Shown here: piece after piece, positions 3,546-51,843 of the stretch
Layout of the letters: every line of letters begins with the position of its first letter
How positions within the stretch are numbered: the first letter of the stretch is position 1
Assembly: GCA_947581665.1 (NCBI GenBank)
Contig: CANPVI010000001.1
Coordinates: 1 to 61,792, forward strand
Reading direction: 5' to 3'
Source: an uncultured Atopobiaceae bacterium
Lineage (GTDB): Bacteria; Actinomycetota; Coriobacteriia; Coriobacteriales; Atopobiaceae
Length of the DNA: 61,792 nucleotides
Made by a program: the position numbers and the translations under genes
Notes under the pieces: generated by a model
Told to the model about the DNA's origin: nothing
What the model saw: the letters and a program-made list of their open reading frames with translations, nothing else
The model's database searches: none

Positions 3546-3574
3546 AATTGCCTCCATATTTTTCGTTATCAACT

Positions 3575-5274: not shown

Positions 5275-6806
5275 CAGCACACCTCCGTTACTGCCTTGAT
5301 ATCTATTGATTGTATTTCGTCTTCGCTTGTCGCCCAATACACGATGGTGACGTATGCCACCTCGCCTGATGTCAGGTGGTATGCGAAGTGTTCCCTGTCC
5401 ACAATTACAATTTTGCGGACGATTTGGTCGAACAGTTTGATGTCGAACTCTGCGATTTTCCCTGTTCGCGTGACCGCCGAGTTATATACTCGGAGGTCAT
5501 TCTGCGCCTTGACATTCTGCCCATTCGTTTCGAGCATATCCTTTTTCTGCTCTTCGGCTTTCACGATGCGGTTGAGCAGTTTCCTGTACTCGCCCTCAAT
5601 CTCTCCGTGTAGCAGTCCCCTTGCTTGGAGTTGCAGGTAGGTCTTTTCCTGATTGAGCATTTGGGTGATCTCTCGGTCGAGTTCCCTGACCGCATCCGTG
5701 ACTTGCATCTCCATAAGGGTTTTGCGCTTGCCTTGTATCATGTTGAAGATTTCCACGAATACCTTTTCGATGGTTTCCTTTTTTACATTTTCGCTTTTGC
5801 AAGCGTTCATCCCTCGGCTACCCTTGTAGTAGCACCCATACCGAACCCTTTTGTCTGTCCGCTTGATGCGGATATAGTTATGTCCGCATTTGCCGCAGAC
5901 GATTTTCCCCTTGAACGGATCGGGCTCTCGGTCTTCCTCTTTCACATACTCCGATGTCCTGTGCCGTAGCACCAACCGTTGGCAGTAGTCCCACATTTCT
6001 CGGCTCACTATCGGTTCGTGGTCATTCTCCACATAGTATTGCTGTGCCGCACCCATGTTTTTGATTTTCTTGCCGTCCGCCACCACGTACTTTTGGAGCA
6101 TGGCATCGCCCTTGTACTTTTCGTTCTTGATGATATATAGGACCGTGCTTGCCATGAACGGTCGCCCATGCGCCGAGGTATAGCCGTCTTTATTCAGTCG
6201 CCGTGCTATCTCCGCCGTGCCGTAGCCCTTGGCATACTCTTCGTATATCCGCTTGACGAGTTTCGCCTCTTCGGGGACGATTACGAGTTGCCCATCGTCA
6301 TTGAACTTGTAGCCGAGCGGGGTGTTCGGGTTCACGATGAGTTGTCCCTGCTCGAATCGCTTCTTGAATGTCCATTTGATGGCTTCGGACTTTTCCTCGT
6401 ATTCTTCCTGTGCTATCTGCGCCATCGTTACGAGCAGGATATTGTTGCGGTCCTTGATGGTGTGCAGATTCTCGGTTTCGAAGTACACAGGGATGTTGAG
6501 TTCCGTCAGTCGGCTGACCGCTCGTATCGTATCCAAGGTGCATCGCCCGAACCGCTTGATTGACTTGCACAGGATTAGGTCTATCTTATGCAATTCGGCA
6601 TCTTGCATCATCCGCTTGAAGTCCTTTCTTGCACCGATGAACCGACCGCTGATGCCATTGTCGATGTAGCACCCACAATTCACCATCTGCGGATCGGCAT
6701 CCATGACTTCGTTGAAGTGTCGTACCTGCGATTCGAGTGATACTTCCTGCCCATAGTTCTTGCTCACTCGGCAGTAGGCGACAGTTCGCAATTTTGTTTC
6801 GCTCAT
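5274..6806 (-). CDS. large serine recombinase (1st of three; paralogue-like to 2019..3545)
   Basis: VAYCRVSKNYGQEVSLESQ, ILCKSIKRFGRCTLD and CGKCGHNY..YGCYYKG..NACKS. Start set to ATG 6806 (GGAGG 8 nt upstream). The longer ORF-track N-terminus is a read-through of the promoter module. Confidence 0.9.
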   Translation of the reverse strand: MSETKLRTVAYCRVSKNYGQEVSLESQVRHFNEVMDADPQMVNCGCYIDNGISGRFIGARKDFKRMMQDAELHKIDLILCKSIKRFGRCTLDTIRAVSRLTELNIPVYFETENLHTIKDRNNILLVTMAQIAQEEYEEKSEAIKWTFKKRFEQGQLIVNPNTPLGYKFNDDGQLVIVPEEAKLVKRIYEEYAKGYGTAEIARRLNKDGYTSAHGRPFMASTVLYIIKNEKYKGDAMLQKYVVADGKKIKNMGAAQQYYVENDHEPIVSREMWDYCQRLVLRHRTSEYVKEEDREPDPFKGKIVCGKCGHNYIRIKRTDKRVRYGCYYKGSRGMNACKSENVKKETIEKVFVEIFNMIQGKRKTLMEMQVTDAVRELDREITQMLNQEKTYLQLQARGLLHGEIEGEYRKLLNRIVKAEEQKKDMLETNGQNVKAQNDLRVYNSAVTRTGKIAEFDIKLFDQIVRKIVIVDREHFAYHLTSGEVAYVTIVYWATSEDEIQSIDIKAVTEVC

Positions 6807-6838
6807 AAGCATTACCTCCATTTTCTTTGGTACGCCAA

Positions 6839-6920
6839 AGCATAGCGTAAAAGACAGAAAGAGCCCAGCGAAAACCGCCCCCAAATTAGACTTTTTACGG
6901 AATAATCGAAAGAATTTTAT
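6839..6920 (-). promoter_or_regulatory. promoter module copy 2, upstream of the recombinase operon
   Basis: Minus strand reads ..GGTTTTCGCTGGGCTC-16 nt-TATGCT, then leader hairpin CTTTGG-cgta-CCAAAG (6825..6840) before the SD. Confidence 0.55.
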
Positions 6921-8663: not shown

Positions 8664-10439
8664 CTATTGTTTTCTGCCCCGTGTTTCCTGTGTCAGCCCG
8701 CCATCGTAGTTGAATTTGTTGTACTCGCACACGAGCCGTTCTTTGTCCCCAAATCGGTCGGTGCAGTCGTAGGCGGCTCCTACTTCGAGTTCGGGGTTTC
8801 CTCGCCATGTGGCGGTCAAGCTGCCCTCTCCTGCGGACAAGCGTTTGAGCAGTAGGTTTGCCATGTATTCCGCCTGCTCGAACGACTGCACCAATTCGCT
8901 CGTGGGATGCACATAGGCGATTGCTCCATAGTTGGCGATGCTCTCTTCGTTCCTTGCCGTTACGGTCCGAGTGTTGATATTGATGGCATTGCCCGACACG
9001 GTGATTATCGCCGTCTGCTCTTCCCCAGAGTTATTCCTGATCGTACACTCGCATGAGTTCACACCGCTGTTGAAAGTTACGATTTGCACCATTGCATTGT
9101 CTATCTCCGCGAACGGATATGCAATCTCCGAGGTGTAGTCGATGGTCATGGTTTTCGTTTCGTTCGCTGCCAACCTTATCTCGGTTTCCGCCACATCGAT
9201 GATGTCATCCTCGATGGTCACTTCGCAATAATCCACCGATACCACATTCGAGAAGTCCGTCAGCGATATGTTCGACTTGTAGGAGAATGCGTTGCCGGGG
9301 TTGACGGCGATTGTGCTTGCAATCGGTGTGTCCGTTTCTCCCCTTATGACGATGCGATTGTTCCGATCCACATACATGCGGCAAAGTCCCGCATTGGCGA
9401 TTTCCTGTAAGGCATCCCAACCCGTGGTCTTCGGCAGGAGTGCTGTGTCCACCACAAAGTCTTTCAGCGTGTCCGAGATGCTGTATTCTTCGGGTTTGAA
9501 CCCCATCTTGACCATGATGTCTTCGGCTATCTCATAGAGGGAGATGTCCGTCAACAGCGGAAAGCCGACATAGCTCTTTATCTGCAAGCGCATCAGCCTG
9601 TCGGTCGCCGTGCATTTTACCCATTGGCTGTCCTGCGGTATATCCCACTCATCCGAGTAGAAACATCCGAGCGGCTGGTAGTCGATTTTCCCATCCTTCA
9701 TCTGCCCGATGAACGGGAAAAGTTTTCGGTCGAGCAACATCAGATTCCGCAAGTACCCCTTGTCGAATTTCCGATTTTCGTTGTAGATCGTCACGGTCAT
9801 GGAGTCCGAATTGATGTTGTATGTTCCCTCGGCGGAAGACAATTCCTCGCCGACTTCGAACGTCTGGAGCGCATCGCCCTCGTATATCTCATAGACACGC
9901 TCGAAATTCCGCAAGATTTTGGCACAGGCGTTCGGTTTGCTCCATTTGCTGATAGTCAGTCGCATGGAGGTGATATCGTCCACAACGGTCGAAAAAACGC
10001 GCTCTAAATCGGTGTTCCCCGTTACACTCTCCGTGTGGATCACAGTTCCGTTCCGTTTGTATTCGAGGGTGAAGTCCACGGGGTATTGGTTGAGCTTCGA
10101 GTCCCCTATAACTCGCCAATAGATAATCGGCCGCATCGTAAACGACAATTCGATGAAAGGCTTATTGGCAAACACCCCATTGACATCGGAGAGTCCCCCG
10201 CTCCACCATCCGACCACCAAGGTATCGTCTATCATCCTGAATGTTCCGTCCATCGTGGAGTGTCCGTCCATGGTGCAAGCCTTGACCGTGGGGACGCTCG
10301 GAAGATGATACACATCCTGTGGGTGGCTTATCTCCGAGTTTCCGCTTTCCACAGTCCTGACGTCATGGCTCAATTCTTCGTCCGCATAGACGATTTCCAC
10401 CTTCGCATAGATTTTCCGTGGGTTATCCGAATATGCCAT
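8664..10439 (-). CDS. tail-associated protein (Tal / prophage-tail baseplate hub family)
   Basis: 591 aa, located two genes downstream of the tape measure. The call rests on synteny and size. Confidence 0.6.
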   Translation of the reverse strand: MAYSDNPRKIYAKVEIVYADEELSHDVRTVESGNSEISHPQDVYHLPSVPTVKACTMDGHSTMDGTFRMIDDTLVVGWWSGGLSDVNGVFANKPFIELSFTMRPIIYWRVIGDSKLNQYPVDFTLEYKRNGTVIHTESVTGNTDLERVFSTVVDDITSMRLTISKWSKPNACAKILRNFERVYEIYEGDALQTFEVGEELSSAEGTYNINSDSMTVTIYNENRKFDKGYLRNLMLLDRKLFPFIGQMKDGKIDYQPLGCFYSDEWDIPQDSQWVKCTATDRLMRLQIKSYVGFPLLTDISLYEIAEDIMVKMGFKPEEYSISDTLKDFVVDTALLPKTTGWDALQEIANAGLCRMYVDRNNRIVIRGETDTPIASTIAVNPGNAFSYKSNISLTDFSNVVSVDYCEVTIEDDIIDVAETEIRLAANETKTMTIDYTSEIAYPFAEIDNAMVQIVTFNSGVNSCECTIRNNSGEEQTAIITVSGNAININTRTVTARNEESIANYGAIAYVHPTSELVQSFEQAEYMANLLLKRLSAGEGSLTATWRGNPELEVGAAYDCTDRFGDKERLVCEYNKFNYDGGLTQETRGRKQ

Positions 10440-10800: not shown

Positions 10801-13491
10801 TTACACCCCCTGTAGATTTACGCCATGCCGTTTGTATTCTTTGTTCAGCTTCGGCATCATCAGCCGTGCAAAGGTCTGCCCGTCGATTTCGAGGACGATT
10901 TCCTGTCCGCTGTCGCCGTTCATTCCTCGCATAGCCAACATCCCTTGCAGTAAGCCGTTTATAAGGTCACCATTCGGGTTGCTGCCCGTTCCGAGCATGG
11001 CTCGGTTTGGTGTGGCGGTCAAGTTGAGCGTACTCGCCACCTCCATTGCCGCTCTCTGCATCATCGGTAGATTTTCGTACATCCCCTCCGCCATCATGTC
11101 CATGAGGTTGGGGATCCACTCGTCCGCCGTATGCCCCGGACCTTTCTTGGTCGGCGAACCGAAACCGAGGAAGTCCGCGATTGCATTTCCGACCGACTTC
11201 ACTCCGTCCACCACCCAATTCCATGCTTTCTTGATGCCATCGCCGATGTTTTGAATAAGATTCTTGCCCCAATTGAATGCATCTTTGAAGAGGTTTTGGA
11301 AGAAGTCCCCGACCTTGCCGAACAGTCCTGTGATGGTGTCCCAGATCCACCCTGCGGCAGATTTGATGCCTTCCCAGATGTTCACGAAGAATCCGCTGAT
11401 GCCTTCCCATGCGCTTTTGAAGATGTTTCCGATGGTATCTCCGCAGTTTTTGAAGAAGTTGACCATGCTCTCCCCGAACCCTTTGATGAACTCCCAAATG
11501 CCGAGGAAGATGTTTTTTATCGCCGACCAAAGGCTGCCCGCGACATTCTTCATGTGTTCCCACGCTTCCGACCAGTCGCCACGCAGCACAGCGCAAACGA
11601 CTTGGATGATTTCGAGGATCGCCTGCGCCACGTCAATGACCGCTTCGATGAACGGTCCGAGCGCATCGATGATGCCCGAAAGAACGCTCGACACCACTCC
11701 CCATAATGTCATCACCAGTCCGCCTATCAGCTCGAAGACGGGTTTCAAGGTTTCGTAGAGCGACACGATGGTGTCCCAGAGCGATGCGAACAGGCTCTTT
11801 ATCTTTTCCCAAATCGGTCGCACATAGGAGAAGAATTTGCCGAGCGCATTCATGATGTTCGTAAAACAGGCGGACACGACTTGCCAAATTTTCGAGAAAA
11901 TGTCCTTCACGGTTTCCCATATTTTCTTGCCGTGTTTCTGCCAGAAGTTCTTTATCGCCGTAACAACGTCTATCACGACATCCTTCACGAAGTTCCAGAC
12001 CTTCTCGGCATACGGCTTGATTTTCCCGAAGATGGTTTTGATGCCTTTCCATAGGGTTTTGAGTGCGTTGAGTGCCGTGTTGATGATTTTCTCGCCGTTC
12101 TGTTCCCACCAAGCCTTTATCGCCCCCACCGCATTGAGTATCACGGATTTGATTTTCTCCCAAATCTTGGTTACCGCATTGCGGAATCCTTCGTTGGTTT
12201 TCCACAAATAGACGAGTACCCCGACCACCGCTGCGATGATGCCGATAATGAGCCCGACCTTGGAGAACAGCATCGATCCGACTTTGGCTATCGTTCCTAT
12301 GCTGCCGATGACCTTGCCAATCACGAGCAACAGCGGTCCGATTGCCGCCGCCAAAAGCGCGATGGTCACGATGTTCTTCTTCGTTCCCATCGACAGCCCC
12401 ATGAGTTTCTGCGTGAGTGGCGAAATGTATTTTTGAATGAACTGTCGGATTATCGGGATCAGCACATCGCCGAACGATATTGCTATTTCCTCGATCTCTG
12501 ACTTCAAGATTTTGACTTGCCCCTGTAATGTGTCAAGCTGTGTTGCCGCCATATCGGAGGCTTTGTTTGTCCCCGTTATCGACTCGGTCATCTCTCTGAC
12601 CGCATCTCCGCCCGCCGACATAAGGGCGAGCATACCGGGGCCCGCTCTCGCGCCGAACACTTTCATCGCTTGAGCGGTATCCATGCCTGCGGCACCGAGT
12701 CTGTCAATGATCGTGGCGAGGTCGTTGGTCGCAGGGTTGACCTCATCATAGGTCAGCCCCAATTCCTCGAACACACCGAGTGCCACAGAGGTCGGGTTCA
12801 TGAGCGATACGAGCGATTGACGGAGCGAAGTGCCTGCGGTCGAGCCGTCATATCCTGCGTTATACAGGACGGCAAGTGCGCCCGTTACTTCCTCTATCTC
12901 GTATCCAAGGCTGTGGGCGACTGGTCCGACATACCCCATTGAATTGGAGAGCTTGTCCATGGTTGCCATGGAGTTGCCTATCGCCGCCGCATACACATTG
13001 GTCACTCTCTCCGCTTGGTCTGCCTCCAAACCGAATTGGTTTAAGGCGGAGATTACGGTATCGGTCGTAAAGGCAAGGTCGCTTTGCGTTGCCGATGCAA
13101 GGTTCAAGGTCGCCTCGATGGACGCTGCCATTTGGTCTACCTTGTAGCCCGCCGATGCCATATAGTACAGCGCATCTGCCGCATCGGATGCCGAAAAGAC
13201 GGTTTTGCTACCCATCTCTCTCGCAAGGGCAGTCATCCTTGCCAATTCATCGCCCGTTGCACCCGCGACCGATGCCGCATTCGCCATGCTCTGCTCGAAT
13301 TGCTGTGAGACATTGACGGCGGCCGTTCCGAGTGCCACAAGCGGTGCTGTGATGCTTGCCGTGAGTTTCGTACCCGCCTTTGTGAATCCTGCGGATACCT
13401 TTTGGATCTGTTTTTGTGCAGTCTGTAACCCTTTGGAAAGCGAGGATATATCTGCCGCTATCTTTACGACAAGGTTACGAATTACAGCCAT
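10801..13491 (-). CDS. tail tape measure protein
   Basis: 896 aa. TP901-type core (..MASAGYKVDQMAASIEATLNLASAT..), a central hydrophobic segment, and a long W/F-periodic helical repeat region. Confidence 0.9.
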   Translation of the reverse strand: MAVIRNLVVKIAADISSLSKGLQTAQKQIQKVSAGFTKAGTKLTASITAPLVALGTAAVNVSQQFEQSMANAASVAGATGDELARMTALAREMGSKTVFSASDAADALYYMASAGYKVDQMAASIEATLNLASATQSDLAFTTDTVISALNQFGLEADQAERVTNVYAAAIGNSMATMDKLSNSMGYVGPVAHSLGYEIEEVTGALAVLYNAGYDGSTAGTSLRQSLVSLMNPTSVALGVFEELGLTYDEVNPATNDLATIIDRLGAAGMDTAQAMKVFGARAGPGMLALMSAGGDAVREMTESITGTNKASDMAATQLDTLQGQVKILKSEIEEIAISFGDVLIPIIRQFIQKYISPLTQKLMGLSMGTKKNIVTIALLAAAIGPLLLVIGKVIGSIGTIAKVGSMLFSKVGLIIGIIAAVVGVLVYLWKTNEGFRNAVTKIWEKIKSVILNAVGAIKAWWEQNGEKIINTALNALKTLWKGIKTIFGKIKPYAEKVWNFVKDVVIDVVTAIKNFWQKHGKKIWETVKDIFSKIWQVVSACFTNIMNALGKFFSYVRPIWEKIKSLFASLWDTIVSLYETLKPVFELIGGLVMTLWGVVSSVLSGIIDALGPFIEAVIDVAQAILEIIQVVCAVLRGDWSEAWEHMKNVAGSLWSAIKNIFLGIWEFIKGFGESMVNFFKNCGDTIGNIFKSAWEGISGFFVNIWEGIKSAAGWIWDTITGLFGKVGDFFQNLFKDAFNWGKNLIQNIGDGIKKAWNWVVDGVKSVGNAIADFLGFGSPTKKGPGHTADEWIPNLMDMMAEGMYENLPMMQRAAMEVASTLNLTATPNRAMLGTGSNPNGDLINGLLQGMLAMRGMNGDSGQEIVLEIDGQTFARLMMPKLNKEYKRHGVNLQGV

Positions 13492-15998: not shown

Positions 15999-17288
15999 TC
16001 ATTCGCCGCTGCGCTTTGCGAGAGTGACGAAAGGCGACACCGTTGCGCTGCCCTTGTACGGCGTGAGCGGTTTGTTCCAGATGGGTTTGCCGTCCATGCG
16101 GTAGATGAAGCGGAACACATTTTCATCGTAGAGGAAGCGGACATGGATAGACGATGCCGCCTTTACACCGCCCTTGTCGATGAGCAGATACTGCCCGATA
16201 TCTGCAAGGATGATGTCGCCCTCTTCGCCCGCAGCACTGCATTGCTCCAAGGGAATAACGGGACGACCGAAGAGCGTTCCGTAGGGTTTCTCGGAGAGTC
16301 CGCCTGCGGGGATGTAGACGGGTTTGTCGCCGATTTTCAGCGTGTAGAGGTAGGGTTCGAGTTCTTGGTTGATGTACCAGACCGCATTGCCCCTCGATCT
16401 CGACCACAGGCGATTCCACATCTTGATAAGGTTCTCGACCGTGATTGTATCCGTCTGCTCCGTTTCCTTTTCGACCTTGACGATTGCCCCGCTCTTCAAG
16501 ATGCCGAGAGGTTCGCCCTCGCCGCTACCCGACAGAATTGCATCATCGATCTTGAAGCCGAACTCTTCGGCGAATGCCTGACGGATGACCGCTTCGAGTG
16601 CCGCCGCATCCTGCAAGAGTTCATCGGTGGCATAGCACAAGCCCGTGAGCTTCTTCAGCGAGAGTTCGAGCTGACGGAACTTCGGTTTGCTTGCCGTGAG
16701 TTCGTCCGCCTCGCCTTCCCAATAGGTCTGCACCCCACCCCAACGGCTGCCGTTGGCACGGCTGTCTTCGTCCACGGCATTGATCTTCATGCCGTTCGCA
16801 TTGGTGCTGATGGGGATTTTCTTGGCACGGCTTGCCAAGATGCCCGTCTCATAGGTGCGTTTCAGAAGTTCGGTCACGAAGTCCTGCTGAACGAGGAACC
16901 CGCCGTCCGAGGGGGTGGTTTCGTTCAGTCCGCTTGCCGCTCTGGTGGAAAGTCTTTCGTCTACCTTTCCGCCGGGTGCCGCCGCCCTGTATGCGGCAAG
17001 GAGCTGTTCGCCGAACGATGCGAACCGCTTTTCATCGCCCTTGGAGGGACTGGGTTTCACTTCGGGTTTCTCCTCGGACTGGGTTTCGGGTTCGATTGCG
17101 AGAAGTTTCTCGGCTCTCGAAATGCTCTCATCCCACGAGCGGATCTCCGCTTCGTAGTTGTCGATTTCCTTGGCTTCCTCATCGGTAAGGAAGCGGTCCT
17201 CGGCTTCCGCCTTGGAGAGAACAGCCATCGCTTTCAGCCTTGCATCCTCTCTTTTGGCTTTCATTTCCAACACTTTTTTCATTGTCAT
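15999..17288 (-). CDS. major capsid protein, HK97 family (with N-terminal delta/scaffold domain)
   Basis: Coiled-coil N-terminus, then ..GGFLVQQDFVTELL..DELLQDAAALEAVI..; 429 aa, located after the prohead protease. Confidence 0.9.
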   Translation of the reverse strand: MTMKKVLEMKAKREDARLKAMAVLSKAEAEDRFLTDEEAKEIDNYEAEIRSWDESISRAEKLLAIEPETQSEEKPEVKPSPSKGDEKRFASFGEQLLAAYRAAAPGGKVDERLSTRAASGLNETTPSDGGFLVQQDFVTELLKRTYETGILASRAKKIPISTNANGMKINAVDEDSRANGSRWGGVQTYWEGEADELTASKPKFRQLELSLKKLTGLCYATDELLQDAAALEAVIRQAFAEEFGFKIDDAILSGSGEGEPLGILKSGAIVKVEKETEQTDTITVENLIKMWNRLWSRSRGNAVWYINQELEPYLYTLKIGDKPVYIPAGGLSEKPYGTLFGRPVIPLEQCSAAGEEGDIILADIGQYLLIDKGGVKAASSIHVRFLYDENVFRFIYRMDGKPIWNKPLTPYKGSATVSPFVTLAKRSGE

Positions 17289-17305: not shown

Positions 17306-17938
17306 TTAAAGATTTTTGAATTTTGTCTGCAAGCCTTTGAGCTTCGCTTGCTGTTTCGCTCTCTCGGCGGTCTGTTTCTCCGCCTGTTCCTTGCTCCGCT
17401 GTTCCGCCTTATACCCGTCATATTCCTGCATTGCACGAACACCGACATCGGTTGCCGTGTATGCGGGGAAAGTTACGGGACTGACATCGAACAGTTGCAC
17501 TTTTCGGATTTCCCGAACATCCATCGAGTCCTTGGTAGACCATTCGTCTTCCTCGACTATGAACCCTATGGACATCTGCGTGATGTCCCCTCGGCGGATG
17601 CTTGTCACGATATCCCTTGCCCAACCCGTATCAGGCGGCAGTATTCGGACTCGGAGTCCGACTTCGTCTTCAGCGAGTTCGAGCGTTCCCGCTCTGTTTC
17701 GACCAAGCACATAGTTGGGATCGTGGTTGAATAATGCTCGGATATCGTCTTTGCCGATGCTTTCGCTGAATGCGCCCTTTCGGACTATTTCCCGAAACGG
17801 AAAGATTCCGCCAAGGGTTTCGGACCACGAATCGAACACGGCTGCGTGTCCTTCTATGACCGCACTACCCTTTTCGCTTTCGTTTACCCGAAGTTCCGTC
17901 ATCGGGAGCATTCGCAGTTCCTTCTTGCCCTTCTCCAT
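17306..17938 (-). CDS. HK97-family prohead protease
   Basis: ..IEGHAAVFDSWSE..FNHDPNYVLGR..GDITQMSIGF.. Confidence 0.85.
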   Translation of the reverse strand: MEKGKKELRMLPMTELRVNESEKGSAVIEGHAAVFDSWSETLGGIFPFREIVRKGAFSESIGKDDIRALFNHDPNYVLGRNRAGTLELAEDEVGLRVRILPPDTGWARDIVTSIRRGDITQMSIGFIVEEDEWSTKDSMDVREIRKVQLFDVSPVTFPAYTATDVGVRAMQEYDGYKAEQRSKEQAEKQTAERAKQQAKLKGLQTKFKNL

Positions 17939-19184
17939 CGCTACCTCCTTCTTGTTTTTCTTCGCCGCCCGTGGATGCCGACTTCATGTTTCCGTTGACG
18001 AGGTAGGTGTCCCCACCGTCCTCTTTCGGAATAAGCGGCATATCCTCCAAACGGCGTATATCGTTAATGGACAGCCATCCGTTTTGCCTACCGACTGCAT
18101 AGCCCTCCATCCTCGATTTGTAGTCGCCACGCATCAAGCCGTCCACATTGAATTTCGGGAAATACAAAAGCCGTTCTTTCTCATCCAAGAGCGAACGGCT
18201 GATTTCCTGTTCCCACCGCACCAACCACGGTCGGATGGTGTGCTGAACAAATTCGATTGATTGGTGTTCAATGTTGCTGAATGTGGCTCTTTCCAAGTCG
18301 CCCACAAGGTGCGGCGGAACACGGAAGATACGGCAAATCTCATTGACTTGGTACTTGCGTGTTTCGAGGAATTGTGCATCCTCCGGGGCAATGCCGATTG
18401 TGTGGTATTTCATCCCCTCTTCGAGTACCGCCACCTTATGGCTGTTCCTTGTCCCTTGGTAGACCTTATTCCAAGACTCCCTTAACTTTTCGGGGTCCTT
18501 CAGTATGCCGGGGTGTTCGAGAACACCGCCGGGACGCGCTCCGTTTCCAAAGAACTTTGCTCCGTATTCCTCGGTCGCAAGCGACAGTCCGACCGCCTCC
18601 CTTGCCTGCGCTATGGGACTTAATCCCACCACCCCGTCAACCGACAAGCCCTTGATGTGGAAGACTTGGTCTGGGGTGTACACGATGGTTTGGTTGGTGA
18701 TATCGTCCGAGTACGTGTATTTGATCTTGCCTGTGTTCGTATCCCTCTCGACCGTCATGAGCTGCGGTTTCAAGTACCAAAGTTCCGTCACATGACCGTT
18801 TTTGCGGATTTTCCGTGCATAGGCATTGCCCCATAACAGGAGCGAGGTCATCATCGTTTCTCGGAACTCGAAACTGGTGCATTCCTCATTCGGCGAGTCA
18901 TGGAGACACGAAAAAAGCGGATGTTGCTCCGCCGTTTCGCTCTTTCCGTCTTTGCCTTTCTTGTATAAGTGCAACGGCAGACTTGCCACCGTTTCCGCAA
19001 GGATCTTGACGCAGGCATACACCGCCGAGGTCTGCAATGCCCGCATTTCGTCCACGCGCACACCGCTGTTGCTCCCGCCGTAGAAGTCCACGTCGACTCC
19101 CCTGATGAAGTCCTGCATTTCCTTGCTCGGTGCGGTCCGTTGCTCCTTCTTAGGGGCATCCCTACTTCGTCCGAAAATTCTCAT
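17865..19184 (-). CDS. portal protein, HK97 family
   Basis: ..SAVYACVKILAETVASLPLHLYKK.. Start trimmed to ATG 19184 (GGGAGGG 3 nt upstream). Confidence 0.9.
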   Translation of the reverse strand: MRIFGRSRDAPKKEQRTAPSKEMQDFIRGVDVDFYGGSNSGVRVDEMRALQTSAVYACVKILAETVASLPLHLYKKGKDGKSETAEQHPLFSCLHDSPNEECTSFEFRETMMTSLLLWGNAYARKIRKNGHVTELWYLKPQLMTVERDTNTGKIKYTYSDDITNQTIVYTPDQVFHIKGLSVDGVVGLSPIAQAREAVGLSLATEEYGAKFFGNGARPGGVLEHPGILKDPEKLRESWNKVYQGTRNSHKVAVLEEGMKYHTIGIAPEDAQFLETRKYQVNEICRIFRVPPHLVGDLERATFSNIEHQSIEFVQHTIRPWLVRWEQEISRSLLDEKERLLYFPKFNVDGLMRGDYKSRMEGYAVGRQNGWLSINDIRRLEDMPLIPKEDGGDTYLVNGNMKSASTGGEEKQEGGSDGEGQEGTANAPDDGTSGKRKRKG

Positions 19185-19249
19185 TTGCCCTCCCTTTTCC
19201 AAATAATTTGAGCCGTCCTTTCGGGCGGCTCGATCTGTCTTTTTTCCGT

Positions 19250-19543
19250 TTATTTTTTCAGCGGCTTGCTGTCTATCAGCGAGGCGCAGACGTTGTCGAT
19301 TGCTTTCCACTCAGCCGAGCATTTCAGCACCGCATATTTCCCTTGCATCTGCGCTCTGTACACCTTGGCTTGGTGCGCCGCGAACTCTTCGGCGATGATT
19401 TCGGGTGCGTGTTCTACATCGGCGAGGATGCGCTTTTTGAGTTCTTCGACCTTCGCATCGTAGGCTGCGTTTTCCTCTGCGGTCGCGTTGTCATGGAATC
19501 CGTGGCTGTAGTATTTAAGTGTTCTGAAGATGTCTTTTGCCAT
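19250..19543 (-). CDS. hypothetical 97-aa protein (accessory cassette)
   Basis: MAKDIFRTLKYYSHGFHDNATAEENAAYDAKVEELKK..; AGGGAGAG SD; preceded by promoter module 3. Confidence 0.6.
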   Translation of the reverse strand: MAKDIFRTLKYYSHGFHDNATAEENAAYDAKVEELKKRILADVEHAPEIIAEEFAAHQAKVYRAQMQGKYAVLKCSAEWKAIDNVCASLIDSKPLKK

Positions 19544-25215: not shown

Positions 25216-26766
25216 CTAAATGACGATTATCCCCCTTTCGTTATACACGCTGTCCGTGCCGCCTTGGTTGCGTATCGCACGGTCCAGAGCCATGACGAGT
25301 GCCACCGCTCCGTCTATGCGCTCCGTGGACTTCTCTTTGTCCATCTTGATGTTGCCCGCAGGATCCGTGCGGACGAAGACGTTGTCCATCATCCACCGCA
25401 AAGGCACATTCCCGCCGTGCGCGATTTTCTGCTCAAGCACGAGCTTCATGAGTTCCTTTGTCGGTGGCGACATATCCTTGAACCCCTGACCGAACGGCAC
25501 GACCGTGAACCCCATCCCTTCGAGATTCTGCGTCATCTGCACCGCTCCCCATCGGTCAAAGGCGATTTCCTTGATGTTGTACTTTGTGCCGAGGTCCTCT
25601 ATAAAGGTTTCGATGTATCCGTAGTGGATGACATTCCCCTCGGTGGTTATGACCTGCCCCTTTGCTTTCCATGTGTCGTATGGAACGTGGTCACGCCGCA
25701 CTCGGAGGTCTATGGTGTCTTCGGGGATCCAAAAGAACGGCAAGACCATGTATTTATCGTCTTCGTCCAAAGGCGGAAAGACCAACACAAAGGCGGTGAT
25801 GTCCGTGCTGCTTGATAGGTCGAGTCCACCGTAGCACTCCCGCCCTTTCAGCCGTTCCGCATCCACGGCGAAGTCGCACTTGTCCCATGCATCCATAGGC
25901 ATCCAACGAACGCTTTGCTTTACCCATTGGTTCAGTCGCAGTTGGCGGAAGAGGTTTTCCTCCGCCGGGTTCTCTTTGGCGGACTCGTATGCGGTCCGCA
26001 GTTTTTCTATGTCCACCGTCACTCCGAGAGACGGATTTGCTTTCCGCCACACCGATTCGTCCGACCAATCATCGTCATCCTCTGCTCCGTATATCACTGG
26101 GTAGAATGTTTTGTCATGCTTTCGCCCTTCGAGGATGTCCTTTGCTTTTTGGTGGACTTCCCAACAGATGCTGTTCCGATCCGTTCCCGCCGTGGTTATA
26201 AGGAAGAACAGGGGTTGCTTTCTCGCATCGCCAGAGCCGTGAGTCATGACATCGTATAGGGCTCGGTTCGGCTGCGCATGGAGTTCATCGAACACGACTC
26301 CGTGGACATTCAGTCCGTGCTTGGTGTACGATTCCGCCGACAGCACCTGATAAAACGAATTCAGCGGCAGATAGACGAGCCGTTTCTGGCTCATCACAGG
26401 CTTGATGCGCTTTTTGAGTGCCGGGCATTGCTCCACCATATTGCAGGCGACATCGAAGACGATGCTTGCCTGCTGTCTGTCCGCCGCACAGCCGTACACC
26501 TCCGCACCCCACTCTCCATCCCCTGCGAGGAGATAAAGGGCGACAGCGGCCGCAATTTCGCTCTTCCCTTGCTTTTTGGGTATCTCTACATAGGCGGTGT
26601 TGTATTGCCTATATCCGTTGTCCTTTACTGTTCCGAATATATCTCGGATGATTTTATCTTGCCAAGGCAAGAGTTCAAACGGTACGCCGTGCCAAGTGCC
26701 TTTTGTGTGTTTTAAGGAGTTGATAAAGGCAACGGCACGGTCCGCAAGCTGCTGATTGTATGCCAT
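25216..26766 (-). CDS. terL: terminase large subunit
   Basis: 516 aa. ..GTWHGVPFELLPWQDKII..VEIPKKQGKSEIAAAVALYLL.. (Walker A-like) and a C-terminal nuclease region. Confidence 0.9.
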   Translation of the reverse strand: MAYNQQLADRAVAFINSLKHTKGTWHGVPFELLPWQDKIIRDIFGTVKDNGYRQYNTAYVEIPKKQGKSEIAAAVALYLLAGDGEWGAEVYGCAADRQQASIVFDVACNMVEQCPALKKRIKPVMSQKRLVYLPLNSFYQVLSAESYTKHGLNVHGVVFDELHAQPNRALYDVMTHGSGDARKQPLFFLITTAGTDRNSICWEVHQKAKDILEGRKHDKTFYPVIYGAEDDDDWSDESVWRKANPSLGVTVDIEKLRTAYESAKENPAEENLFRQLRLNQWVKQSVRWMPMDAWDKCDFAVDAERLKGRECYGGLDLSSSTDITAFVLVFPPLDEDDKYMVLPFFWIPEDTIDLRVRRDHVPYDTWKAKGQVITTEGNVIHYGYIETFIEDLGTKYNIKEIAFDRWGAVQMTQNLEGMGFTVVPFGQGFKDMSPPTKELMKLVLEQKIAHGGNVPLRWMMDNVFVRTDPAGNIKMDKEKSTERIDGAVALVMALDRAIRNQGGTDSVYNERGIIVI

Positions 26767-35815: not shown

Positions 35816-37792
35816 TTATTCGTCATTGTCCGTGCGGTCGTAGATCGTTGCTTGATAGCCATAGGGCTGTTGGGGCAATTTTCTCACAAAGCAATGTTTC
35901 CTTGCAGACGAAGTGCGTGTTACTTTATGCTCTATGTCATCGCAATAGAGTCGGTACTCGAACTTCTCGATTGCCTTGCCCACGGCTGCATTGGTATCTG
36001 CGATTTGCTTGCCCGTGATGTCGTATATCTCTTTTTTGAGGTCGTCCACCGTTCCACACCATCCCTTGAGCGGATTCCGCTTGACCAATTCCTTGATTGT
36101 CTGGACGATAGTGCTGTTTTCGTATTCTTCCCGCTCTTTGCGGTACTCCACTTCCTCGGCTGTGCCTTCTACCACCCACTTGTAGTCCAAGGTCGTAAAC
36201 GCTATGACCAAGTCGCTTTGCTGTATGTCGCGTCCCACCATGGACAAGGTCGCATTTTGGTCATTGCGCTTTTTCTTCGAGATGATGAAGATGGAGTCGG
36301 CGGCACCCATGAGTGCCGTGCTGCCCGATATCATGTTGAAGACATCCGCCTCATCCAACATTTTCCGAAGGTGATGCACGAACAGCATACAGACTTTGTG
36401 CTTGTCCGCATATTCCTTGAACATCGCCATCTCTCGGTAGTCGCCGCTGTAGACCGACTCATTGCGCATCGCCCTCCCTCGCACCTTTTGCAAGGTGTCG
36501 ATGATGATGAGTTTGATGCCGGGGAAAGTCCGAAGTTCTTCGTCTATCTTGTCCAAGAGTCCCCTGTCCACGGGATCCGCCTCCGTCACAAAGCGAAGAG
36601 CGGTCGGTGCTTTCCTCCCTTTGAGCATTTTGTTGAGTCGGTCTTTCAGCCTTGACTTGCTGTCTTCGAGCGCATAATACAGCACACCGCTCTGGTTGGT
36701 TTTGAAGTCCAAGAATTCCTTGCCCTCCGCCACCGCCAAGCCGAGTTGCAACATCATCCACGACTTGCCTATCTTGGACGGCGCACACAATATGGCGAGT
36801 CCCGTCGGCAGTACATCTCGGACTATCCATATCGGCGGCTCCACGTTTTCGCCTTGGAGTTCAAGGGCGTCGAAACTGTCCTTTGCAGTCGCATACTGTT
36901 TCCGCAGTTTGAGCTTCGCCGCCTTGACCGCATCTTCGAGCTTCTTGGGGTTCGCCATGAGCTGTTCGTTCGGATCCTTGCACTCGCCTGCGATGTTGTA
37001 TGCGATGACCTGAACACCCAAAGCCACGAGTTCCGCCATCATCGCTCCGCTTGCTTTCTGCCCTGCATCATCGTTGTCGAAACAGAGAATAAAGCCACCG
37101 AGCGGACGCTTTTTCTTAACTTCCTCGATCACCTTTTTCCATCCGCCCGTGCCGCAGGTCGCAATGCAATTTCCACCGCTTTGATAGACGCTCATGGCGC
37201 ATATCGGACTTTCGACTACAAATATCGGCTCTTTGGAACGGTGCCTCAACCCCTCGATGTTGAACACAGGCTCTGGACCTGCGTCTTCGGTTTTCGGCTT
37301 GAAAAAGGCTTTCTCTTCGATGCTCCGCGTTTGATAGTAGGTCAGCTTGGACGAGTACGGAATGACCACAGATTTATGGTACTCATCGTACCCCAAACAA
37401 AATTTCCGTATTGTCGCACGGCTCAACTCCCTCTTTTCAAAGTAGTTGGTTTTGCCGATGTCGGCGATGCACCGTTTGAGGTAGTCGGTGATGGTTGCCG
37501 TTTTGCTCGGCTTGGATTCCCCCACTTCGATGTGGTATCTTTCCGCAAGTTCCCTCGCCGCCTCGATGGGCTCTATCCCTTTGAGCTTCGCCACAAAGGT
37601 TATCGCATCGCCCGACTCGCCGCACCCAAAGCACTTGAAAATATTGTCTTCACGCTTGACCGAGAACGATGGAGTCTTCTCTTTATGGAACGGACATAAT
37701 CCTTGCCCTTGGTAGTTGAGATGTACGCCATAGTCTTCGACTACCTCCGCTATCTTGATATTCCTTTTTACCGTTTCAAAAATGTCGCTCAT
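35816..37792 (-). CDS. bifunctional DNA primase (CHC2 zinc finger + Toprim) / RepA-like helicase ATPase
   Basis: CPFHKEKTPSFSV..FKCFGCG; Toprim region; Walker A ..CAPSKIGKSW.. Confidence 0.85.
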   Translation of the reverse strand: MSDIFETVKRNIKIAEVVEDYGVHLNYQGQGLCPFHKEKTPSFSVKREDNIFKCFGCGESGDAITFVAKLKGIEPIEAARELAERYHIEVGESKPSKTATITDYLKRCIADIGKTNYFEKRELSRATIRKFCLGYDEYHKSVVIPYSSKLTYYQTRSIEEKAFFKPKTEDAGPEPVFNIEGLRHRSKEPIFVVESPICAMSVYQSGGNCIATCGTGGWKKVIEEVKKKRPLGGFILCFDNDDAGQKASGAMMAELVALGVQVIAYNIAGECKDPNEQLMANPKKLEDAVKAAKLKLRKQYATAKDSFDALELQGENVEPPIWIVRDVLPTGLAILCAPSKIGKSWMMLQLGLAVAEGKEFLDFKTNQSGVLYYALEDSKSRLKDRLNKMLKGRKAPTALRFVTEADPVDRGLLDKIDEELRTFPGIKLIIIDTLQKVRGRAMRNESVYSGDYREMAMFKEYADKHKVCMLFVHHLRKMLDEADVFNMISGSTALMGAADSIFIISKKKRNDQNATLSMVGRDIQQSDLVIAFTTLDYKWVVEGTAEEVEYRKEREEYENSTIVQTIKELVKRNPLKGWCGTVDDLKKEIYDITGKQIADTNAAVGKAIEKFEYRLYCDDIEHKVTRTSSARKHCFVRKLPQQPYGYQATIYDRTDNDE

Positions 37793-44701: not shown

Positions 44702-45304
44702 CTAATTCAAGTCCTTGATTACCTTTACCGCCACACCTTGCACCATGATTTGGTCAACGAAAATGTCATCCATATTCGGGTTTTCGGGATGCAGATAGTA
44801 GACATCTTCCTCCGAGTCGTATTCGAGCCGTTTCAGCGTGACTTCGTTCTCCACGAGTGCCACCACGATGTCGCCCACCTCTGCGGTTTCTTGCTGCCGT
44901 ATCAGCACAAGGTCTTCGTCATTGATGCCTGCGCCAATCATCGAATCGCCGCTTGCTTTCAAGATGAAGAATTTTCCTTGCCCTATCAACGACTCTGGCA
45001 GACGAACATATCCCTCGATATATTCCTCTACTTCGGTCAGCGGTCCGCAAGGGACTGCGCCGAGGATCGCCACCGACCGCATCGGTGAGTCGCTCTGGGC
45101 GAGTGATTTAGAGATGTAGCCGTTCCTGCCCTTGCAGAGCAGTCCGTCTTTCTCTAATCTCGCAAGGTATTTGTATGCTCCGCCAACACTCAAGCCGTAT
45201 TCTTCGGCTACTTCCCTGACTGTCGGTCCGTAGCCTTGCTTGTCGCATTGCTCTTCTACATACTCCTGTATTTGTTTCAAAAGGTTTTGGTCGGGACTGC
45301 GCAT
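44702..45304 (-). CDS. lexA: LexA-type repressor (winged HTH + S24 autopeptidase)
   Basis: ..GYGPTVREVAEEYGLS..; the cleavage region lies between the DNA-binding and S24 domains (exact scissile bond not identified); ..ASGDSMIGAGI..VTLKRL.. Confidence 0.9.
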   Translation of the reverse strand: MRSPDQNLLKQIQEYVEEQCDKQGYGPTVREVAEEYGLSVGGAYKYLARLEKDGLLCKGRNGYISKSLAQSDSPMRSVAILGAVPCGPLTEVEEYIEGYVRLPESLIGQGKFFILKASGDSMIGAGINDEDLVLIRQQETAEVGDIVVALVENEVTLKRLEYDSEEDVYYLHPENPNMDDIFVDQIMVQGVAVKVIKDLN

Positions 45305-45333: not shown

Positions 45334-45415
45334 AAACGGCTGTTCACGATAGGTGCTTTTATTATAGCGATTCTCTTTGCCCTTGTCAATAGTTTTCTGT
45401 CGTACTTTTGCGACA
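45334..45415 (-). promoter_or_regulatory. lexA promoter: palindrome TGTCGCA-aaag-TACGACA, 8 nt, TTGACA-17-TATAAT, then a Cheo-type LexA box GAAC-N4-GTTT
   Basis: Palindrome 45398..45415, -35 at 45384..45389, -10 at 45361..45366, LexA box at 45334..45345 (inside CTATCGT..ACGATAG). Confidence 0.65.
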
Positions 45416-45749: not shown

Positions 45750-45911
45750 ATACCTCTCTGTTGGATTCCACAAAGAGGTATGAGAAAACCCATCGTCCGA
45801 TGGGTTCTTCCTTTCGTTATATCCCATCGTTCAGCCTTTAGCACCTTGCCGTTCGGTAGGTTGCTGTGCGGTCATTGGGGCTGTCCCTAACGCACTCTTT
45901 ATGGTACTTTT
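45750..45911 (-). promoter_or_regulatory. ~160-nt attenuator-like leader of 45440..45745
   Basis: On the RNA, CGATGGG (45829..45823), CCCATCG (45804..45798) and CGATGGG (45795..45789) are followed by UUUUCUC. An SD-sequestering hairpin follows at 45750..45781. Confidence 0.5.
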
Positions 45912-45940
45912 ATTATAATGCCTGTTTGCCCACAAGTCAA
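45912..45940 (-). promoter_or_regulatory. consensus promoter TTGACT-17-TATAAT (leftward)
   Basis: -35 at 45940..45935 and -10 at 45917..45912. Confidence 0.65.
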
Positions 45941-45966
45941 TGTTATGTGCCACTTTATTTTTGGGA

Positions 45967-45984
45967 TGTCGCACTTATGCGACA
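45967..45984. promoter_or_regulatory. palindrome TGTCGCA-ctta-TGCGACA between divergent promoters (candidate operator)
   Basis: Perfect 7-bp arms. Same motif as at 45398, 48861 and 61360. Confidence 0.6.
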
Positions 45985-46016
45985 ACAAAAATTTTCCCCA
46001 CACACCCCGTTTGGCA

Positions 46017-46045
46017 TTGACTTCTCTCGGCGGTTCGAGTATAAT
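46017..46045 (+). promoter_or_regulatory. consensus promoter TTGACT-17-TATAAT (rightward)
   Basis: -35 at 46017..46022 and -10 at 46040..46045. Confidence 0.7.
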
Positions 46046-46051
46046 ATCATC

Positions 46052-46375
46052 GTAAGCCATTGGTATTTGAAGACCGTGCTATGTCGCCCTACAAGGGTTT
46101 GACGAGGAAACCCCCAAGGCTTTGAGACATTTTGGGATTGATGATAGCGCACCGTACCAGTGACCCCCTTCCGTAACCCATCGGCACTAACGTGGTCTTT
46201 GAAAATTCTCGTTATACCACGGACAGAGCAAGTGAGCTTCTTGCGTGCTTCTGCGTTACACCAACAAATCGAGCAATGGGCATTGCCCACTTGCTTGTTT
46301 TGCGTTGTGTGTAACGATGGGAGCGACCGAGTCAGTTTCTTTCCCCTACACACAGCGTGTGGGGGTTTATTTTTG
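46052..46375 (+). ncRNA. ~320-nt structured leader / ncRNA ending in an intrinsic terminator, upstream of the mini-HNH gene; class not recognised
   Basis: 10-bp closing helix 46066..46075 / 46194..46203. Terminator CCCCTACACAC-agc-GTGTGGGGG+TTTATTTTT (46343..46375). Competing pairings are GTGTGTA (46307) with TACACAC (46347), and CGTTACAC (46254) with GTGTAACG (46309). Confidence 0.5.
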
Positions 46376-46397
46376 GCTCGGAAAGGAGGTGTTATCT

Positions 46398-46739
46398 ATG
46401 AAAATCAATCGCTCTACTGCCATGATGCTCTGGGAGGAACAATTCGGTGATGCGGAGTTCGCCGAAGATTTCCATGGGAACTTGATGCGCCGTTCCGCCT
46501 ATGGCGATGCCGACTACTGCACTCGGTATCATGGGGAACTCATCTATTGCGGATGGAATATTCACCATATTCTCCCCCGCACCCACGGCGGCACCAATGC
46601 CTTTGAAAACCTCATCTGCACCAATGTGGCGACCAATGAGGCGGCGGCGGACAAGATCACCTATTGGATTGATGACTCGCTCTACCAAGTGCGCCGCATA
46701 TTCGGCACGAGTCAACACGAAATAGTCAGGATCACTTAA
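46398..46739 (+). CDS. minimal HNH endonuclease (113 aa)
   Basis: AGGAGG SD. ..YCGWNIHHILPRTHGGTNAFENLICTNVATNEAAADK.. Confidence 0.75.
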   Translation: MKINRSTAMMLWEEQFGDAEFAEDFHGNLMRRSAYGDADYCTRYHGELIYCGWNIHHILPRTHGGTNAFENLICTNVATNEAAADKITYWIDDSLYQVRRIFGTSQHEIVRIT

Positions 46740-50715: not shown

Positions 50716-51843
50716 ATGGAAGAAAAAAGAACCGCTCTCGTATCCCGCAAGTCATCGAAGACAGGTATCGGTCAGCGGAATCGAGAGCAAATTCGCGAGG
50801 CTTATGCCACGGCAAATCCCAACCTTGAAGTCATACCCGTGAAGGAGACGGTTCAAGCTGCCGGGGTGCCTCGCAAGTTGCGTGTGTGTGGCTATTGCCG
50901 TGTCAGCACGGAAACCGAACAACAGCAGGGTAGCTTTGAGCTACAAGTCCAAGACCAAGAACGGGTGATAAAGGCTAACCCTGCGTGGGAGTTCGCTGGC
51001 ATCTATGCTGACGAGGGCATCTCTGCGACTGGTGTTGAAAAGCGCAAGGAATTCTTGCGGATGATTGACGACTGCAAGAACGGACAAATCGATCTCATTA
51101 TCACGAAGTCCGTTAGCCGTTTCGCTCGTAACCTTGTCGACTGCATTACTTATATCCGCTTGCTGAAAAATCTCTCCCCTCCTGTGGGCATTTACTTTCA
51201 GAACGACAATCTAAATACCCTCGACCAATCGTCCGAGATGATGATTGCCTTCATGTCCTGCATGGCGCAGGAAGAGTCCGCCAAGAAGTCCGAGGCGGTC
51301 AAGTATGGTGTGCGGAAGAAGTTTGCGGTCGGCATTCCTCGGTGTCCGCGTCTGCTCGGCTACGACAAAGACAAGGACGGGAACTACTTCATTGTGGATG
51401 ATGAGGCAAGGGTTGTCAAGTATATTTTCCATTACTACTTGGAGGGGTACTCCTCCATCGCCATTGCCGATTCGCTCACAAGGGCGGGTATCCCCACCAT
51501 CACAGGACAGAGTCCGATTTGGTGTCCGGGGGTGGTTTTAAGTATTCTCCGCAACGAGAAATATTGCGGCGACATCGCCATGCAGAAAACCTTTACCAAG
51601 GACTACCTCACACACAAAGCCGTCAAGAACACGGGACAGGTGCAAGCATACCTGTTGCACAACCACCATCCCCCTATCGTTTCAAAGACTGACTGGCAGC
51701 GTGTCCAAGAGCTGCTCGAAAGTTGGCGGACGAGAGCAAGGCGCAAAACTCGGAAACAGCGGAAGGTCTTTTTGGTCAAGAAAGGTCGGTTCGCCGGGTA
51801 TCTCATCATTGACCCCTCTTGGACAGAAAATTATTTTGAATAA
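50716..51843 (+). CDS. serine recombinase (4th in window) lacking the zinc-ribbon/coiled-coil C-terminal domain
   Basis: ..VCGYCRVSTETEQQQGSFELQ.. catalytic domain plus recombinase domain (..LRNEKYCGD..HHPPIVS..). Ends about 30 aa later at 375 aa. Confidence 0.85.
   Translation: MEEKRTALVSRKSSKTGIGQRNREQIREAYATANPNLEVIPVKETVQAAGVPRKLRVCGYCRVSTETEQQQGSFELQVQDQERVIKANPAWEFAGIYADEGISATGVEKRKEFLRMIDDCKNGQIDLIITKSVSRFARNLVDCITYIRLLKNLSPPVGIYFQNDNLNTLDQSSEMMIAFMSCMAQEESAKKSEAVKYGVRKKFAVGIPRCPRLLGYDKDKDGNYFIVDDEARVVKYIFHYYLEGYSSIAIADSLTRAGIPTITGQSPIWCPGVVLSILRNEKYCGDIAMQKTFTKDYLTHKAVKNTGQVQAYLLHNHHPPIVSKTDWQRVQELLESWRTRARRKTRKQRKVFLVKKGRFAGYLIIDPSWTENYFE

Follow-up and report, generated by a model that had tools for sequence, protein, structure and literature searches.

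Among described regulatory RNAs, four kinds stand closest to the element treated here. The pbuE (ydhL) adenine riboswitch, a transcriptional ON switch, is an element of the 5′ untranslated region (5′-UTR) whose junction aptamer is locked by contact between two loops; T-box leaders are long, multi-domain RNAs of Bacillota that terminate by default and choose between an antiterminator and a terminator; type III toxin-antitoxin systems (ToxIN, CptIN, TenpIN) have the order promoter, RNA, terminator, nuclease gene; and the HEARO/omega RNAs of IscB and IsrB lie directly upstream of an open reading frame (ORF) with an HNH motif. The element in question is a leader RNA in front of a gene for a predicted HNH nuclease of 113 amino acids, found in 61,792 nucleotides of an uncultured Atopobiaceae bacterium (assembly GCA_947581665.1, contig CANPVI010000001.1, positions 1 to 61,792, forward strand), a stretch that we call the window. 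Judged by sequence comparison, the leader is a real, conserved cis-regulatory RNA class, absent from Rfam 15 and from the searched literature, and we consider it probable that it acts as a riboswitch-like ON attenuator gating the nuclease gene in a prophage moron.

The cassette consists of the following parts (positions in the window).

46017..46045, plus strand: sigma-70-type promoter TTGACT-17-TATAAT, 11 of 12 consensus matches, aligning at the same place in the inspected homologous loci
46052..46397, plus strand: 5′ leader RNA of about 345 nucleotides with a sensor domain and an expression platform, supported by fold z-score, conservation and covariation
46058..46162, plus strand: domain 1 of the sensor, closed by helix P1 (46058-46065 with 46155-46162)
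46095..46113, plus strand: K1 hairpin GGGUUU-GACGAGG-AAACCC, with loop K1 (46101-46107) as kissing partner
46173..46177, plus strand: central GUAAC, 5′ strand of the candidate helix P0, pairing with 46255-46259
46183..46249, plus strand: three-way junction closed by helix Pa (46183-46187 with 46245-46249)
46191..46221, plus strand: hairpin Pb (46191-46195 with 46217-46221), whose loop holds K2, UCUCGUU (46207-46213)
46253-46261 with 46309-46317, plus strand: anti-antiterminator helix P4, GTGTAACG paired with CGTTACAC
46306-46313 with 46347-46354, plus strand: antiterminator of 8 base pairs, UGUGUGUA with UACACACA (GTGTGTA:TACACAC)
46327-46334 with 46374-46381, plus strand: outer stem around the terminator, 9 of 12 pairs with changes on both sides
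46343..46376, plus strand: intrinsic terminator, a covarying stem of 9 pairs (46343-46365; 6 G-C) with a U-tract
46385-46389, plus strand: Shine-Dalgarno (SD) sequence GGAGG
46398-46739, plus strand: predicted HNH nuclease gene, 113 amino acids
46745..46776, both strands: bidirectional terminator hairpin closing the cassette, with a 14-base-pair stem, called on the minus strand and more weakly on the plus strand

Transcription likely starts near 46052. The 113-residue protein has 252 close homologues, nearly all of 111-116 amino acids, and a scan of one genome per species gave 77 HNH loci, spread over Christensenellales, Oscillospirales, Lachnospirales and a few metagenome-assembled genomes labelled Erysipelotrichaceae. 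A profile search found the leader upstream of the HNH homologue in 72 of the 77, always in sense orientation; the closest loci (L001-L004) share 70-73% identity with the window from the promoter through the start codon. Two of the five exceptions have little upstream sequence (L012, L074), two are partial gene matches (L067, L077), and one, L005, is truly leaderless: there (2740-3339) the HNH homologue is 66% identical and the upstream sequence resembles coding sequence, which makes this locus a natural comparison case. A pattern scan of metagenomes added 91 further leaders, each followed by an HNH gene.

Another 32 matches of the metagenome scan were rejected. They belong to an unrelated 43-nucleotide inverted repeat (GCTTTACACCATAC...GTGTAAAG; L084, L091, L095, L138 and about 30 other metagenome loci), which occurs sometimes twice per contig. 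It has the P4 sequence in common with the leader, but neither a leader nor an HNH gene accompanies it; the contigs that carry it are GC-rich and full of GGGTTAACCC-like repeats. Scans of viral contigs with two aptamer-core patterns returned chance matches only.

An initial annotation, made from the letters of the window, had matched the RNA to no recognized class. Rfam 15 agrees: the window leader has no match even at E ≤ 10, 20 homologous loci have no leader match at the gathering score, and the divergent leaders L011 and L007 gave chance-level matches only at E ≤ 10. No HNH-associated leader is described in the searched full-text literature, the unnamed candidates of large microbiome catalogues not having been sequence-compared. 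To this extent the suggestion of a new cis-regulator, one of the two functions considered in that annotation, stands.

The window leader folds better (−121.9 kcal/mol) than its dinucleotide shuffles (−97.3 kcal/mol; z = −4.3; 0 of 100 shuffles as good). For the analysis of covariation, 58 non-redundant copies were aligned with MAFFT, once for the platform (alignment A3) and a second time for the sensor from the transcript start to P4 (alignment A4), neither alignment being fitted to a structure; the shuffle controls given below can be exceeded through relatedness alone. In these homologous upstream regions promoter, leader blocks and alternative pairings are conserved and covary. Over all helices together there are 381 G-U or U-G cells as compared with 59 A-C or C-A cells, from which excess it follows that the plus strand is the folding strand. 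A minus-strand ORF of 132 amino acids (45955-46353) and other ORFs within the leader are not conserved and were rejected.

The 3′ part of the leader had been read in the initial annotation as an attenuator in which segment 1 pairs with 2, 2 with 3 and 3 with 4, and each of these tiers is now backed by covariation in the 58 copies; promoter, terminator with its T-run, both alternative pairings, SD sequence and the minimal gene with its HNH motif were likewise found where they had been placed. P4 is almost invariant; 99.4% of its cells pair, and compensatory exchanges replace U-A by G-C in the window's clade and by C-G in L058. It encloses a variable, covarying hairpin at 46270-46297. The antiterminator can pair in 98.5% of cells. 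Only one of its pairs varies, and this pair, which belongs neither to P4 nor to the terminator stem, covaries as C-G (38 sequences) or U-A (15 sequences). The outer stem ends 3 nucleotides 5′ of the SD sequence in the window; in the majority consensus of HNH-type leaders the first GG of the SD sequence is paired within the end of this stem, and the OFF state would then repress translation as well. When the OFF structure is taken as a whole (P4, inner variable hairpin, outer stem and terminator), 89.8% of cells form standard pairs, as against 20-49% in slid controls, and 22 of 34 pairs have changed on both sides, a result that none of 500 shuffles equaled. By their predicted pairing, terminator and antiterminator are mutually exclusive and, with P4 as a further tier, make up an expression platform of the riboswitch type (46253-46389).

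A platform of this kind could be worked by a ribosome, and a 12-codon mini-ORF (46276-46314) had indeed been named as a possible participant; in such leader-peptide attenuation, translation of the mini-ORF would select between the helices. It is present in the window with its stop inside the 3′ strand of P4. Among the 58 leaders, however, only 10 have an ATG-started ORF of five or more codons that leads to this stop; in most, the same frame is already interrupted by a stop two or three codons upstream, the ATG of the window is ATC in its closest relatives L001-L004, and the region forms a covarying hairpin. We find this mechanism hardly credible.

The sensor region measures about 210-240 nucleotides from its start to P4 (about 46052-46262 in the window). 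P1, which closes domain 1, has undergone compensatory exchanges among members of the window's clade, and in a swap test the native strands paired at −15.3 kcal/mol and swapped strands at −9.3 kcal/mol (0 of 2000 permutations as good). The K1 hairpin of this domain had been noticed before, as one of several nested within a 10-base-pair helix (46066-46075 with 46194-46203). The hairpin is real, and its loop engages in a covarying long-range kissing interaction. The helix, in contrast, had to be given up as a feature of the family. Within the window's clade it reaches 10, 8 and 7 base pairs, whereas other leaders can form no more than 5, and it clashes with the covarying helix Pb.

Pa and Pb are paired in 94% of cells, with a covariation of 0.49 as compared with 0.20 in shuffles (0 of 500 as high), while the third arm of the junction, Pc, varies between leader types. 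The kissing interaction K1:K2 that ties domain 1 to the junction comprises 6-7 base pairs and reaches a covariation of 0.39 (0.16 in shuffles; 0 of 500 as high). Its central pair is G-C in 26, C-G in 18 and U-A in 12 sequences and is never unpaired, the neighboring pairs alternate between A-U and G-C, and the K2 core comes in eight different sequences; each of the commonest K1 versions is matched by a K2 complementary to it (ACGAG:CUCGU, ACCGG:CCGGU, ACUAG:CUAGU, ACCAG:CUGGU, AUCGG:CCGAU). When the best duplex of the Pb loop with the complete 5′ domain was calculated without an alignment, it fell on K1 in 48 of the 58 leaders; native partners form this duplex at −11.9 kcal/mol and swapped partners at −9.7 kcal/mol, the native mean being reached by 0 of 2000 permutations. 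The sensor also contains a long invariant single-stranded stretch, GCUUUACACCAUAC. A pairing of GGUG in the Pc loop with an invariant CACC was considered and dropped, since GGUG is helical in one leader type and neither side varies.

Sensor and platform meet in P0. Immediately 5′ of Pa stands an invariant GUAA(A/C), which can pair with UUAC of the 5′ strand of P4 to give a short helix that closes the junction; it is pairable in 86.5% of cells and has 4 compensatory cells, three in the window's clade (GUAAC:GUUAC) and one in L058 (GUGAA:UUCAC). Followed thermodynamically through the growth of the window transcript, the minimum free energy (MFE) structure contains P0 until the 3′ strand of P4 has been made, and P4 then replaces it; in the snapshot just before the 3′ arm of the terminator emerges, the MFE structure is P0 plus antiterminator. 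At full length the MFE structure of the window is the OFF state with P4 and terminator (−127.7 kcal/mol), the ON state lying at −113.5 kcal/mol. Across the 58 leaders, P0 is present in the MFE structure of 28 truncated transcripts and P4 in that of all 58 full-length ones. P0 thus behaves as expected of a marginal switching helix, and we therefore propose an ON switch.

In the proposed mechanism the strong promoter would transcribe the leader constitutively, and the leader would decide whether the polymerase gains access to the HNH gene. By default P4 and the terminator would form and transcription would stop after about 320 nucleotides. An effector, most likely a small molecule, would bind the junction locked by the kissing loops and would stabilize the weak closing helix P0. 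P0 would then hold the 5′ strand of P4, so that P4 is blocked, and the freed GYGUGUA segment could pair with the 5′ arm of the terminator, giving read-through into the nuclease gene. The helices, the kissing interaction and the alternative pairings can be read from the alignments; what we infer beyond them is the probable role of P0, the direction of the switch, the nature of the effector and the function of the nuclease.

The leader is found in front of a second kind of gene. Downstream of the leaders L081 and L184 and of the second leader of L162 there is no HNH gene; the gene there codes for a protein of about 73 amino acids that is rich in Asn, Gln and His and has an acidic tail (...QLDxYANQNNPNNxAYxAN...). 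This Asn-rich protein has 164 homologues, and no family assignment or annotation was found for it. When the surroundings of the 73-amino-acid gene were fetched (loci among L203-L215), the leader class was upstream in 5 of 5 distinct contexts, among them a type I restriction locus, two prophage regions and a repressor/Arc region. These leaders, which lack the outer stem, show a K1:K2 covariation of their own (L203, AACGAGCA with UGCUCGUU; L162, AUGAGAG with UUCUCAU). Their terminator stem is a different one (CCACGCAC...GUGCGUGG), and the segment overlapping the 3′ strand of P4 reads GUGCGUG; the antiterminator complementarity has therefore been re-matched.

At the HNH loci no conserved neighboring gene was found, the flanks varying in their combination of TnpV-like genes, serine recombinases, repressors and phage genes. 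Since the leader precedes two unrelated small genes in many mobile-element settings, with no conserved protein neighbor, it is best read as a cis-regulator that would answer a ubiquitous signal.

Several points weigh against the proposal of a riboswitch-like ON attenuator. P0 is short and A-U rich, has only 4 compensatory cells and is part of the MFE structure of only 28 of 58 truncated transcripts; a structure common to the clades was obtained for only part of domain 1; and neither the HNH nor the Asn-rich family offers a metabolic clue to a candidate ligand. With a promoter this close to the consensus, the cell would be swamped by terminated leader RNA, as would also suit an RNA that acts in trans. 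The covariation comes from 58 related sequences with shuffle controls that are not phylogeny-aware, and termination and read-through are predicted from the sequence.

The missing metabolic clue leads to the question whether the same attenuator could have a sensor for a macromolecule, be it a transfer RNA (tRNA) as in T-box leaders, a host RNA-binding protein or a trans-acting small RNA. The size of the sensor falls within the T-box range, the regulated genes indicate no metabolite, and the invariant single-stranded GCUUUACACCAUAC could be a docking site. On the other side, no T-box or other model of Rfam matches even at E ≤ 10, the downstream genes are unrelated to aminoacylation, and a dedicated protein factor lacks a conserved neighbor gene. 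As the cassette occurs in many mobile-element contexts and host families, any macromolecular factor must be universal. We hold this explanation to be unlikely and continue to favor a small molecule as effector of the ON attenuator.

The gene product is, by its conserved His and Asn residues and its profile match, a predicted member of the HNH (beta-beta-alpha-Me) nucleases. The window protein scores 20.5 bits with Pfam HNH, just under the cut-off of 21.4; H56, N71 and N80 are invariant across 91 sequences of the family, and HNH domains from the Protein Data Bank (PDB) match it at E = 1e-3. Remote relatives pass the Pfam cut-offs of HNH_4 and HNH; in these the HNH module is the N-terminal domain of proteins of 300-440 amino acids (including P0127, P0153, P0163, P0169 and P0176). 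No Pfam, NCBIfam or PADLOC model matches the C-terminal parts of these proteins. In the 113-residue protein itself no domain beyond HNH was found, neither RuvC nor a target-interaction domain. PHROGs, PADLOC and NCBIfam gave nothing informative for the protein and its neighbors, and the AlphaFold model, of low confidence (predicted local distance difference test score 62.5) for a very uniform family, was not used.

The HNH core is nearest to the models of Cas9d, IscB and HNH_4, all far below threshold. This, together with the location of a structured RNA directly upstream of an HNH ORF, could be taken to mean that the leader is a guide or scaffold RNA of the HEARO/omega type for a minimal RNA-guided nuclease. 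The other function considered in the initial annotation, a guide- or antitoxin-like RNA, was of this kind, and it did not survive. A protein of only 113 amino acids with HNH as its sole domain, the pairing of the 5′ end in P1 where a free variable guide would be required, the lack of a match with HEARO or any other Rfam family, the complete attenuator in the leader and the occurrence of the same leader before a gene that does not encode a nuclease make a guide RNA highly improbable.

The antitoxin side of that suggestion corresponds to a type III-like toxin-antitoxin system, in which the terminated leader RNA, abundant and stable, would neutralize the nuclease in trans and the terminator would set the ratio of RNA to protein. 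Strong promoter, structured RNA, terminator and small nuclease gene do follow each other as in ToxIN, and the window cassette is without a protein immunity gene, as opposed to the 14 of 77 genome loci with the acidic ORF described below. Tandem repeats were searched in the leader, however, and none found; the toxin would have to be an HNH nuclease instead of a ToxN-like ribonuclease (RNase); a fixed ratio makes a conserved, covarying antiterminator unnecessary; and the leader also precedes the unrelated 73-amino-acid protein. We rate this explanation as improbable and retain the riboswitch-like attenuator.

Directly 3′ of the HNH gene, 14 of the 77 genome loci contain a very acidic ORF of about 59 amino acids (MSKHFFDYDDGD...DEEDDD), which is absent from the window cassette. 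In L162 it follows the HNH gene and the Asn-rich gene alike (6735-6914 and 8845-9024). Its character suggests, as a guess, an inhibitor or immunity protein, in which case the effector protein would be harmful.

The cassette is located in the repressor-proximal accessory region of a prophage, adjoining the genes of a Y-family polymerase and a LexA-like S24 peptidase. With a single gene between a promoter and a terminator of its own, it has the form of a moron. Positions 1-43 kb of the window make up the late and replication regions of the prophage on the minus strand; several DNA methyltransferases are also encoded in the prophage window. BLAST of the region against phage and plasmid collections found no similar DNA. 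The landmarks are:

2019-3572, 3667-5337 and 50716-51843: large serine integrases, at least three in the prophage window
10801-13491, minus strand: tape measure protein of the prophage
15999-17288, minus strand: major head protein of the prophage
17865-19310, minus strand: portal protein of the prophage
25216-26766, minus strand: large terminase of the prophage
35816-37792, minus strand: primase of the prophage
45821-45907, minus strand: SAM-I riboswitch (RF00162), 51.9 bits, with its own promoter and terminator

The promoters of the SAM-I riboswitch and of the HNH leader are placed back to back on opposite strands. The riboswitch controls an ORF of 101 amino acids (45745-45440, minus strand) with no family assignment, an unusual gene partner for SAM-I, on mobile DNA. 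In all six loci fetched for homologues of this ORF (L216-L221; two distinct contexts) a SAM riboswitch is upstream, and downstream there are, as in the window, a LexA-like S24 peptidase and a Y-family polymerase. The LexA-like repressor gene of the window (44702-45304) is preceded by a promoter with 12 of 12 consensus matches, TTGACA-17-TATAAT (45361-45389, minus strand).

Attenuation by terminator and antiterminator with a structured sensor, the mechanism proposed here, is of a known kind; unusual are the large size of the sensor and the cargo. If the leader is a riboswitch, it represents a large new class with a kissing-loop-locked sensor of two domains that controls a nuclease and not a metabolic gene; the class is widespread in gut and rumen Clostridia, whose prophages and other mobile elements carry it. 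The identity of the effector would reveal which signal is monitored before a potentially self-damaging enzyme is deployed, and would add a ligand-RNA pair usable in anaerobes. In a more specific form of the riboswitch reading, phage infection, DNA damage or some other threat to the mobile element would alter a metabolite or nucleotide signal, and this ligand would switch on the nuclease directly, through transcription. We regard this as a long shot. If it were true, the leader would be an RNA-only counterpart of signal-activated defense nucleases, and with the SAM riboswitch at its back it would form a prophage set of metabolite-gated accessory genes. Should the effector turn out to be a protein or a tRNA, the leader would still be an uncatalogued family of regulatory RNAs with more than 160 examples. 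Because there are several cultured carriers (Ruminococcus flavefaciens ATCC 19208, Lachnobacterium bovis S1b, Coprococcus hominis, Pseudoflavonifractor phocaeensis An901 and Anaerocaecibacter muris, the source of L004), the question is directly testable.

How does the leader compare with the systems named at the outset? With the HEARO/omega RNAs it shares a length of a few hundred nucleotides, the position upstream of an HNH-motif ORF and the location on mobile DNA. It differs from them in having no match with the HEARO model and in being an attenuator RNA without a free guide segment, and IscB and IsrB (about 350-500 amino acids, with RuvC and further domains) differ from the 113-residue protein, which has neither RuvC nor other IscB domains. 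With the type III toxin-antitoxin systems it has in common the order of its elements and the setting in mobile elements or defense regions; it differs in the lack of tandem repeats, in an HNH protein in place of a ToxN-type RNase, in the conserved antiterminator and in being common to a gene for a non-nuclease.

T-box leaders resemble it in length, division into domains, default termination, the competition of antiterminator and terminator, and occurrence in Bacillota. Unlike them, the HNH leader matches no T-box model, shows neither a T-box sequence nor a UGGN bulge, and is followed by genes unrelated to amino-acid supply. The neighboring SAM-I riboswitch is, like the leader, based on a terminator and situated before a small gene without assigned function in the same prophage region; SAM-I is, however, a known family with a known ligand and an OFF switch, unrelated in sequence and structure to the leader. 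Most similar in its proposed working is the pbuE adenine riboswitch, likewise a 5′-UTR element with a junction locked by loop-loop contacts, in which a ligand-stabilized closing helix, as proposed for P0, withholds a strand from a competing helix and so prevents the terminator. The HNH leader has no sequence or model similarity to pbuE. Its sensor is about three times larger and consists of two domains, P4 adds an anti-antiterminator tier, and the genes under its putative control are not metabolic or transport genes, as with pbuE, but those of a nuclease and an Asn-rich protein on mobile elements.

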